DNA from: Acidobacteriota bacterium
Lineage (GTDB): Bacteria; Acidobacteriota; UBA6911; RPQK01; JAJDTT01
Reading direction: 5' to 3'
Assembly: GCA_965219005.1 (NCBI GenBank)
Contig: CBDCMS010000004.1
Span: 659,841 to 723,840, forward strand
DNA: 64,000 nucleotides
Shown: in pieces, positions 48,315-50,137 of the stretch
How the letters are laid out: every line of letters begins with the position of its first letter
How positions within the stretch are numbered: the first letter of the stretch is position 1
Position numbers and translations under genes: made by a program
Notes under the pieces: model-generated
What the model was told of the DNA's origin: nothing
The model's input: the letters and a program-made list of their open reading frames with translations, nothing else
Databases searched by the model: none

Positions 48315-48555
48315 CGCTCAAGCCCTCAGCGTTTACAGCACATTTACTACCGTCCGGTTAAAGCATTTAGATATCGTTTCAACACGCTTATAATCATTGA
48401 TTTAGAAGGAAAACAAGCTGGAATCGATTTCAGCTGAGACTTCCGCCGTCTTCCCTCTCGTGTGGGCGGATCGACTTTGGGATCGAGGGATGGGAAATGG
48501 GTCTTATCAAAACCAAGCGAGGTCAATCCCAACGGGATTGCGTATTCCAGCCCAG

Positions 48556-49762
48556 TGACTGTGTTGGTTTTGTCAAGCATTATCAAGATTCTGCCGCTAA
48601 CGGTGCTCTCCAAAGATCATCGTTTTTGACCATCGTGTTGAGCGTGACGAGGAGCTTTCTCATGGACGCTATCAGGGCCACTTTAGGCTCTTTTCCGGAG
48701 GCGACAAGGCGATTGTAGAAGGTTCGAATCTGCGGATTGTGTCGGATCGCTGAGAGCGTGCACATGTAGAGCTGATTACGGAGTTGACGCCGTCCTCCCC
48801 AGATGGCACGAGGGGCTGGAGTCCCTCGCCGCTGTCCTGATCCCAAGGGGCCAATCCCACCAGGGAAGCGACTTCTCTGCGATTGACCCTGCCCAACTCA
48901 GGCAGCTCACACACCACGATCTGACTGCTTCGCTCCCCTATCCCCGGGCAGCTTTGCACCACCTCCTGGCGCCGAAGGAGCTCGGCATCGAGCCGCAGCA
49001 ATTCCTCCACCTTCTGCTCAACCTCTTTCAGTTCTTGATCCAGCAGGCCAAGGATTCGCTCCACTCCTTGACGCAGCTCCTGATCCTCATACTGATGGCG
49101 ACGAGTCCGCTCGATCTTACGACACTCAATCAGTTGCCTGCGTCTGCGATTGTAGGCTTGTAACTGCTGATAGTAGGCGGTTTCCTGCTTACTGATACGA
49201 TGAATCCCCAGCTGCCCACAACGCCCCAGGACGTGGGCATCCAGACGATCATTCTTGGCTAGGATTCCCAGACCCTTCGCCAGGTCTCGAGCTTGTCGAG
49301 GATTCACGCAACAGACGGGGATCCCCGCCTCATTGAGCTCTCTCAGGACCCGCTTCTCATAACCCCCCGAGGCTTCCACCACCACCGAGACCAATCCCGC
49401 GATCCCCTCCAGACGGCGGAGGATCTCTGCGATTCCTTCCCCCGCGTTGGAGTGCTCCGAGTGTTCCTCCCGTGGCAGCAGACACAGATCTAGCCGATCC
49501 TTGCTGACATCAATGCCCGCTGCGGGCTGACTCATCCAGGTTTTGTTGATAGGATTACCTTTGAGTTGTTTCATGGAGACCCTTCCTTATATTCGGGCTC
49601 TCTCTTTGACGGAGGCCCAGGCGACTGTTCGGGTTGACATGAAATGGGCCGACCACGGATCTCGCTGGGCTCCGGTCTCGACGGACCGAGGGTTTCACGA
49701 TCTCGTGGTCGGCTCGGATCAGACGTTCTGACCCGAATTCCTTTCAACAAATAACACATATA
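48556..49762 (-). mobile_element. IS110-family element; recombinase 48583-49574 frameshifted near 48815-48835
   Basis: [20 protein letters not shown] (DEDD), PGIG, GLAP...DSG, GGR..LR..LY; no terminal IRs; CT core duplicated at both junctions. Confidence 0.92.
49580..49755 (-). ncRNA. Predicted IS110 bridge RNA
   Basis: Two stem-closed internal loops carrying segments that match the target (GAAACCCU, AGCCCAG) and donor (ACAGUCGC, AUAUAAG); ends approximate. Confidence 0.8.
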
Positions 49763-50137
49763 AGGGTTTCCGAACCCTGGGTAAGAGAGTCAATCCCTTT
49801 ATAATCAACCCTGTAAGGGTTGTGTCCTGACCCATTTATTGCCTTTCTGTACGCAACCCATTCAGGGTTGAGATCCAGGGCGACGCCGTTCACCTAGGGT
49901 TTGGAAACCCTGGGCTGAAATACGGAATCCCTTCAGGATTCACCTCCGTACTGTAGCACGGTGGAGTCAAGCGGGAAACGATGGGTCCTGGCTACTCGGA
50001 TGGCTTCGTGACCAGGCCGTGGGTCTTCGAAATCGCCAGGGAATGCTTCAAAAGGCCACACGGGGTCTGGTATCTTTGGGGATAGATTCAAGGAGAGCGT
50101 ATGAGAGCTGCGGTCCTGTGTGTGATTATCCCCTGAT

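Follow-up and report, generated by a model that had tools for sequence, protein, structure and literature searches.

A predicted bridge RNA and its REP-like target in an IS110-family insertion sequence of an Acidobacteriota bacterium

How does an insertion sequence (IS) recognize the place where it inserts? The question is raised by an element on a 64,000-nucleotide (nt) stretch of DNA from an Acidobacteriota bacterium (assembly GCA_965219005.1, contig CBDCMS010000004.1, positions 659,841 to 723,840 of the forward strand). This whole stretch is called the window, and positions are those of the window unless a contig is named. The element is very probably a previously unnamed member of the IS110 family (IS110 subgroup, IS621-like) that transposes by bridge-RNA-guided recombination. 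The initial annotation had proposed an IS621-type bridge RNA whose loops encode a repetitive extragenic palindromic (REP) target and the element's own ends. This proposal is supported by the fold of the leader, by copies at the same site, by covariation and by the strand scheme of the guides.

The element and the two parts of its target are arranged as follows.

48556 to 49762, minus strand: IS110-family insertion sequence, 1207 nt, with boundaries taken from 30 genomic copies and empty sites
49763 to 49764, minus strand: CT core of the left junction; a second CT lies at 48554-48555
49763 to 49781, minus strand: left half of the occupied REP-like hairpin (5' arm CCCAGGGTT, loop, AACC-CT), from the junction reads
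48514 to 48555, minus strand: right half of the occupied unit (CT-GGGCTG, linker, second hairpin AATCCC-GTT-GGGATT), from the junction reads
49893 to 49940, plus strand: unoccupied inverted partner REP-like unit, with an intact target at 49903-49917

The left junction reads GGAAACC-CT followed by TATATG, where IS position 1 is window position 49762 on the minus strand. The right junction reads ACAGTCA followed by CT-GGGCTG, and the last IS base is 48556 on the same strand. These junctions, the resulting target GGAAACC-CT-GGGCTG and the four leader segments matching target and ends all lie where the initial annotation had placed them. So does the unoccupied target in the other REP arm, which is an exact 15-mer.

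The genome (8.8 Mb, 4 contigs) carries 30 copies of at least 977 nt, which are 98.6-100% identical. The regular length of this family is 1205 nt, and the window copy is longer owing to a 2-nt insertion. Among the copies read, the CT core ends 28 of 28 left flanks and begins 27 of 27 right flanks. Contigs of three sequencing runs contain the empty site, in which 48553 is joined to 49763 and 1209 nt are skipped (the IS and one CT); such joints occur in 6, 6 and 4 contigs of the respective runs. No significant terminal inverted repeat was found: the longest run common to both ends is 6 nt, which was equalled in 480 of 2000 shuffles.

The copies are found at essentially one kind of site. Of 29 readable left junctions, 26 lie in one REP-like hairpin. 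Twenty-five of these belong to the 28 junctions that could be read directly, in the form CCCAGGGTT-CGGA-AACC^CT, and in the 26th occupied unit another insertion has displaced the first bases of the copy. The three copies outside the repeat all keep the core and the whole right-target arm (CT and GGGCT). On the left, only CC, CT or ACC is kept beside the core. One of these three sites is itself a hairpin with arms like those of the REP-like repeat, while the other two have no comparable hairpin. The initial annotation had asked whether other copies insert at unrelated sites, and this census answers it.

The information for such a choice appears to lie in the left non-coding end. The segments of the predicted RNA are listed here, all on the minus strand.

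49575 to 49762, minus strand: 188-nt non-coding left end, predicted to be the gene of the bridge RNA (minimum free energy, MFE, fold; RNAalifold on 18 elements)
49736-49715, minus strand: 5' stem-loop of the leader, from the fold
49713-49648, minus strand: target-binding loop, from the fold
49689 to 49696, minus strand: left target guide GAAACCCU (DNA GAAACCCT), with the top-strand sequence of left target and core
49665 to 49671, minus strand: right target guide AGCCCAG, the complement of CT+GGGCT
49664-49663, minus strand: target-loop handshake guide CG, the two bases directly after AGCCCAG
49634-49579, minus strand: donor-binding loop, from the fold
49621 to 49628, minus strand: left donor guide ACAGUCGC (DNA ACAGTCGC), matching the family right end ACAGTCG plus C
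49586 to 49592, minus strand: right donor guide AUAUAAG (DNA ATATAAG), the complement of CT+TATAT
49585-49584, minus strand: donor-loop handshake guide GA, the bases directly after AUAUAAG

In IS621, left guides pair with the bottom strand and right guides with the top strand, and the core takes part in all four pairings, as described by Durrant et al. 2024 (PMC11208160). The guides here follow this scheme. The left guides repeat the top-strand sequence and the right guides are its complement. All four extend over the core, except at the ninth base of the left donor guide. When the leader was shuffled 200,000 times with its dinucleotides preserved, the four guide words occurred singly 778, 3050, 397 and 724 times (left target, right target, left donor, right donor).

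The leader is predicted to be strongly folded, with an MFE of -72 kcal/mol compared with -55.1 +/- 4.5 for shuffles (z = -3.76). In this fold, a GCCGACCACG/CGUGGUCGGC stem closes the target loop, in agreement with the stem named by the initial annotation, and a small tip hairpin lies between the two target segments. A consensus of 18 leaders (RNAalifold) has 21 pairs in five helices, with compensatory changes in 18 of the 21 pairs. The target loop contributes its long closing stem, with a single pair immediately inside this stem, and a tip hairpin; the donor loop contributes a base stem and a tip hairpin. Paired cells amount to 86.6%, compared with 62.6% in shuffles (0 of 500 as good) and 33-47% when the partners are slid by 1-3 columns. 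One check suggested at the outset was whether the matching segments fall in loops or in stems. All four guides fall in unpaired columns, within internal loops of this covariation-supported structure.

If the loops specify the target, relatives with other targets should carry other loops, and this is what is found. Relatives were picked by the presence of both end motifs (...ACAGTYR-CT and CT-TRTNTS...) at IS-like spacing, which held for 31 of 77 loci. One element per distinct target was kept, giving 17 relatives and, together with the window copy, a set of 18. The 17 relatives have donor ends in common and different targets, and their loops differ accordingly. For instance, one relative has the loops GACGCCGCU and AGUAGAAG for the target GACGCCG-CT-TCTACT, and another has CCCGGCU and GGUCAAG for CCCGG-CT-TGACC.

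Two loop regions per element were scored against the target of every element; one element (L035) was dropped, its right flank being only 3 nt. Across the remaining 17 elements, matches to the own target numbered 234, compared with 168 +/- 7 under permutation, and 0 of 100,000 permutations were as good. The own target was best or tied for best in 15 of 17. The guide/target pair itself appears new within the sequences searched, as the initial annotation had supposed. Outside the genome's own cluster, the nearest protein shows 54% identity and those after it 47% or less, while relatives in the genome collections reach at most 41-43%. The nearest of the latter (41-42%) has the same right guide and a different left guide.

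Covariation extends to the donor side. Ends in TATAT go with AUAUAAG here, and ends in TGTAT go with AUACAAG in relatives. A single copy in the genome (C3:844299-845500) starts with TGTATG, the state of the relatives, rather than TATATG, and its pairing with the right donor guide would include a U-G pair.

A further set of pairs concerns the handshake positions, which were taken, like the roles of the catalytic residues, from the description of IS621 by Hiraizumi et al. 2024 (PMC11208158). In 17 of 18 elements, donor position 7 pairs with the base that follows the right target guide; one relative among them has a compensatory A/U at this place. For target position 7 and the base that follows the right donor guide, a Watson-Crick pair is seen in 13 of 16 elements (8 of 100,000 permutations).

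The sole failure at the target-loop handshake is the window copy, and it can be traced to one base.

48556, minus strand: private G-to-A change at the element's last base (donor position 7), with A in 1 of 27 right ends

The 26 other right ends read ...ACAGTCG and match ACAGUCGC perfectly over 8 of 8 positions. The G wobble that the initial annotation saw in the left donor guide is therefore really this private change. It breaks the handshake pair and probably weakens donor recognition of the window copy. In contigs of all four public runs (four studies), base 48556 is read as G on the IS strand.

Could the four matches be due to chance, in an ordinary IS without an RNA guide? Each is short (7-8 nt), and nothing else favours this idea. 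Two or more guide words occurred together in only 37 of the 200,000 shuffles and all four in none, the product of the single frequencies being 4e-10. Guides and handshake bases also change with targets in the relatives, so that chance is extremely improbable and is counted as refuted. Another possibility is that the protein recognizes the REP hairpin, in which case the leader would be only a promoter or untranslated region and its matches incidental or captured REP sequence. The target is indeed a DNA hairpin, as is one of the three off-REP sites, and a target stem-loop adds specificity in the case of ISPpu10 according to a preprint (10.64898/2026.03.19.712850). This possibility is nevertheless very unlikely. 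Guides change with targets across 17 elements, and two off-REP sites keep only the core and the right arm. Moreover, a hairpin stands between the left and right guides, and the right guide is the reverse complement of its target, an arrangement unlike that of captured REP sequence. The target hairpin may still make a structural contribution besides RNA pairing.

A different kind of objection is that the family is a fossil, with remnants of an old burst, no active member and a relic leader. Four of 30 copies have broken or truncated frames, three are interrupted by other DNA, and one lacks the first 91 nt. The lack of a circle junction in the contigs of four runs, discussed below, would also fit. 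Against this, the full recombinase frame is kept in 26 of 30 copies, and the leader is identical in 26 of 30. The high identity of the copies likewise counts against a fossil, and the IS was not found in five of five target-bearing genomes of the same genus, which points to recent spread. A fossil family is thus unlikely, although less so than target choice by the protein.

Several observations weigh against bridge-RNA-guided recombination or limit the evidence for it. Position nine of the left donor guide is a C, whereas a U would be required to pair with the T of the core; the same C is present in several relatives. No Rfam family matches the leader at E <= 1. Variable columns are fewer in the leader (1 of 188) than in the coding region (27 of 992), a difference that is not significant (Fisher p = 0.11). 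The relatives were chosen by findable end motifs, so the covariation test covers one subclade, and since kin are not independent, the permutation figures overstate significance. Finally, no circle junction was seen among the joints in contigs of four runs, and contigs cannot show rare forms.

Bridge-RNA-guided recombination would proceed here, by analogy with IS621, through a circular form. Excision would join the two ends of the element at the CT core, and the joined ends would bring TTGACA (right) and TATATG (left) together as a promoter. From this promoter, a leader of about 175 nt and the recombinase gene would be transcribed. The leader would fold into a 5' hairpin and two internal-loop stem-loops, of which the donor loop, with ACAGUCGC and AUAUAAG, would recognize the joined ends of the element itself. 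Once strands have been exchanged, the two bases behind each right guide would pair, as handshake guides, with the partner DNA. A DEDD/Ser recombinase would exchange strands at CT, and the element would come to lie in the 3' arm of the genus-wide REP-like hairpin (CCCAGGGTT-CGGA-AACC^CTGGG).

The predicted promoter is split between the two ends of the integrated element.

48571 to 48576, minus strand: TTGACA, the -35 promoter half, completed by TATATG (49762-49757) only after circularization, with a spacer of 17 nt

The halves and the spacer are present as the initial annotation described them, so that circularization would form TTGACA-17-TATATG. In the integrated state, the best -35 candidate matches at 3 of 6 positions. 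A -35 match of at least 5/6 is found in 12 of 18 elements, including that of the window, in a list unfiltered for -10 quality; in most of the 12, the -10 is shifted by two bases towards the interior of the left end. Such an arrangement agrees with the promoter reconstitution described for IS621. Two RNA runs contained only 0.07 of the sampled words.

The enzyme that would act on these sites is encoded behind the leader.

48583 to 49574, minus strand: recombinase gene, frameshifted in the window copy by a CC insertion at about 48812-48815

The intact recombinase has 329 amino acids (aa) and is encoded by 26 of the 30 copies, among them the one at C4:3026252-3027455. It matches PF01548 (3.8e-18) and PF02371 (2.9e-16), and scores 180.3 bits against the NCBIfam model NF033542, 'IS110 family RNA-guided transposase' (cut-off 140). 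In a phmmer search of PDB chains, ISCro4 (1.3e-28) and IS621 (1.4e-26) were matched. Residues D22, E67, D109, D112 and S248-G249 align with the catalytic residues of IS621 (chain 8wt6_A).

In the window copy, a 2-nt insertion (CC) at IS positions 948-949, seven codons past Ser248, splits the gene over two frames. This is the frameshift that the initial annotation had located just after the DSG serine. The first open reading frame (ORF), of 300 aa (49574-48672, minus strand), contains PF01548 and the first half of PF02371. The second, of 87 aa, overlaps it (48846-48583, minus strand) and contains the second half of PF02371. The CC insertion is absent from the contigs of all four sequencing runs.

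Because of the frameshift, the window copy is probably non-autonomous. The initial annotation had expected that this copy needs either repair or a trans-acting enzyme. With intact genes in 26 of 30 copies, an enzyme is available in trans and repair is therefore not needed; to judge from their sequences, these copies could supply both enzyme and RNA to the window copy.

The same frameshift is found in 3 of 30 copies, at C4:708396-709602 (the window copy), C4:418570-419775 and C3:2408795-2410000, and its product stops at 300 aa; one further copy is truncated. Shared ancestry of the three copies is not supported, as their haplotypes are mosaic at the other 27 variable columns. The presence of CC at three loci could reflect trans-mobilization of a defective copy, gene conversion, or an insertion that is recurrent or derived from assembly.

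Some copies are themselves interrupted by other DNA. In two, the break is at position 1188, just past the stop codon (C3:651535-652876, equivalent to L028:2705-4046, and C4:134206-136892). The insert in the copy at C3:650349 is an IS4-like element that encodes a 389-aa protein with DDE_Tnp_1 and DUF4372, and its end sequence also adjoins a third IS110 copy (C2:408468). In another copy (C3:37127-37164 and C3:38157-39348), inserted DNA separates the first 12-20 bases from the rest by about 1 kb.

What kind of sequence is the target? The target unit is a two-hairpin repeat, often found in inverted pairs with two more small hairpins and variable spacers between them. It is a short palindromic unit present in many copies, and its intergenic location was checked within the window. 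The repeat is thus a mosaic resembling REP sequences and bacterial interspersed mosaic elements (BIMEs), not a uniform miniature inverted-repeat transposable element (MITE). The exact 15-mer target GGAAACCCTGGGCTG has 15 unoccupied occurrences in the genome, compared with 0.03 expected, and the 13-mer covered by the guides has 30. When up to three substitutions are allowed in the 24-nt hairpin pattern, 44 units are found, one of which is an occupied unit; occupied units number 26.

All five same-genus genomes carry the target hairpin, in 72-129 copies each, and a protein search (E <= 1e-30) did not find the recombinase in any of the five. The landing pad is therefore older than the presence of the element in this genome, and the distribution of target and element points to recent spread.

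Inverted pairs of units show a peculiar occupancy. Twenty occupied units lie 152-183 nt from an inverted partner. Among the inverted pairs, 20 carry the element in one unit, 5 in neither and none in both (P = 0.0012 under independent hits). Sixteen of the free partner units match the guides perfectly over 13 nt. The simplest cause of single occupancy is the loss of long palindromes. Strand-specific, replication-linked targeting is not supported as a cause, since orientation does not follow GC skew: 16 of 30 copies have the IS top strand on the G-rich one (p = 0.86).

The target unit also aligns end to end with the Rfam model RF01687, Acido-Lenti-1, below the gathering score of 37. The window unit (49893-49940) scores 27.3 bits, and the best of the genome's 11 matches 35.3. 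At E <= 0.001, Acido-Lenti-1 is matched in 24 of 41 related genomes, counting the source genome and one sub-threshold match in G016. Thirteen genomes have a match over the threshold, and one genome has up to 106 matches at E <= 0.001. Five related genomes (G017, G020, G022, G030 and G032) contain 71-106 such matches each, often in inverted pairs about 150 nt apart, in a REP-like manner. No general link between Acido-Lenti-1 and IS110 elements was seen: six IS110 loci of three related genomes gave no match to Acido-Lenti-1 or any other Rfam model at E <= 1.

A bolder reading combines these two observations. In this reading, the one-per-pair rule would be an active, cis-acting target immunity, and the orphan Acido-Lenti-1 'RNA' would be a REP-like DNA landing pad. 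The combination is doubtful. If true, target immunity would be a new layer of control for bridge-recombination elements; the alternative is loss of 1.2-kb palindromes.

The known bridge mechanism of IS110 elements is left unchanged by the present element, which adds a further example. Its use is that of a natural data set, rich in copies, on a bridge recombinase from beyond the Proteobacteria, with an 8-nt left guide, a 7-nt right guide and 30 insertions. Five sister genomes with the target and, by protein search, without the element add to this use. In addition, a role is suggested for a repeat that resembles an orphan Rfam motif. The three off-target insertions fit the definition of 'half-match' sites (core plus one arm) given in a study of IS621 (10.64898/2026.08.31.748434). 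By the account in that study, right-arm-only events could not be scored there, the right guide of IS621 being only 4 nt. The insertions that keep the core and the right arm are natural cases of this class.

Similar systems are known in other bacteria. Acido-Lenti-1 (Rfam RF01687; Weinberg et al. 2010, PMC2864571) resembles the target repeat in its two-hairpin layout and in its many copies, and its members also occur in inverted pairs. It differs in that all 11 matches in the source genome are under the gathering score. ISPpu10 and ISPpu9 of Pseudomonas putida are IS110-family elements in REP stem-loops, often in convergent pairs less than 200 bp apart, as reported in the preprint on ISPpu10 cited above (10.64898/2026.03.19.712850; see also PMC12288879). 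They are comparable as REP-inserted IS110 elements, with 20 occupied units next to an inverted partner in the present case. Host phylum, target sequence and guides are different, and the target stem of the present element spans the core itself.

Members of the IS1111 group have a non-coding region downstream of the gene and subterminal inverted repeats. Their seekRNA directs an RNA-guided DEDD transposase to specific sites, as described by Siddiquee et al. 2024 (PMC11187229). In the present element, the predicted RNA lies upstream of the gene and there is no significant terminal repeat.

The closest parallel is IS621 of Escherichia coli. Both elements have a DEDD and Ser recombinase, with all five catalytic residues aligned, and a guide RNA, predicted in the present case, in the left end with two internal loops. 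They also have in common the strand scheme of left and right guides, the CT core in the pairings, the handshake positions, a promoter split across the circle junction and targets of the REP type. The protein match is distant (phmmer E 1.4e-26), the target differs, and the host here is an uncultured Acidobacteriota bacterium. The evidence for the present element comes from sequence analysis. The left target guide is 9 nt in IS621 and 8 nt here, and the right target guide is 4 nt in IS621 (PMC11208160), compared with 7 nt (core plus 5) in the present element.

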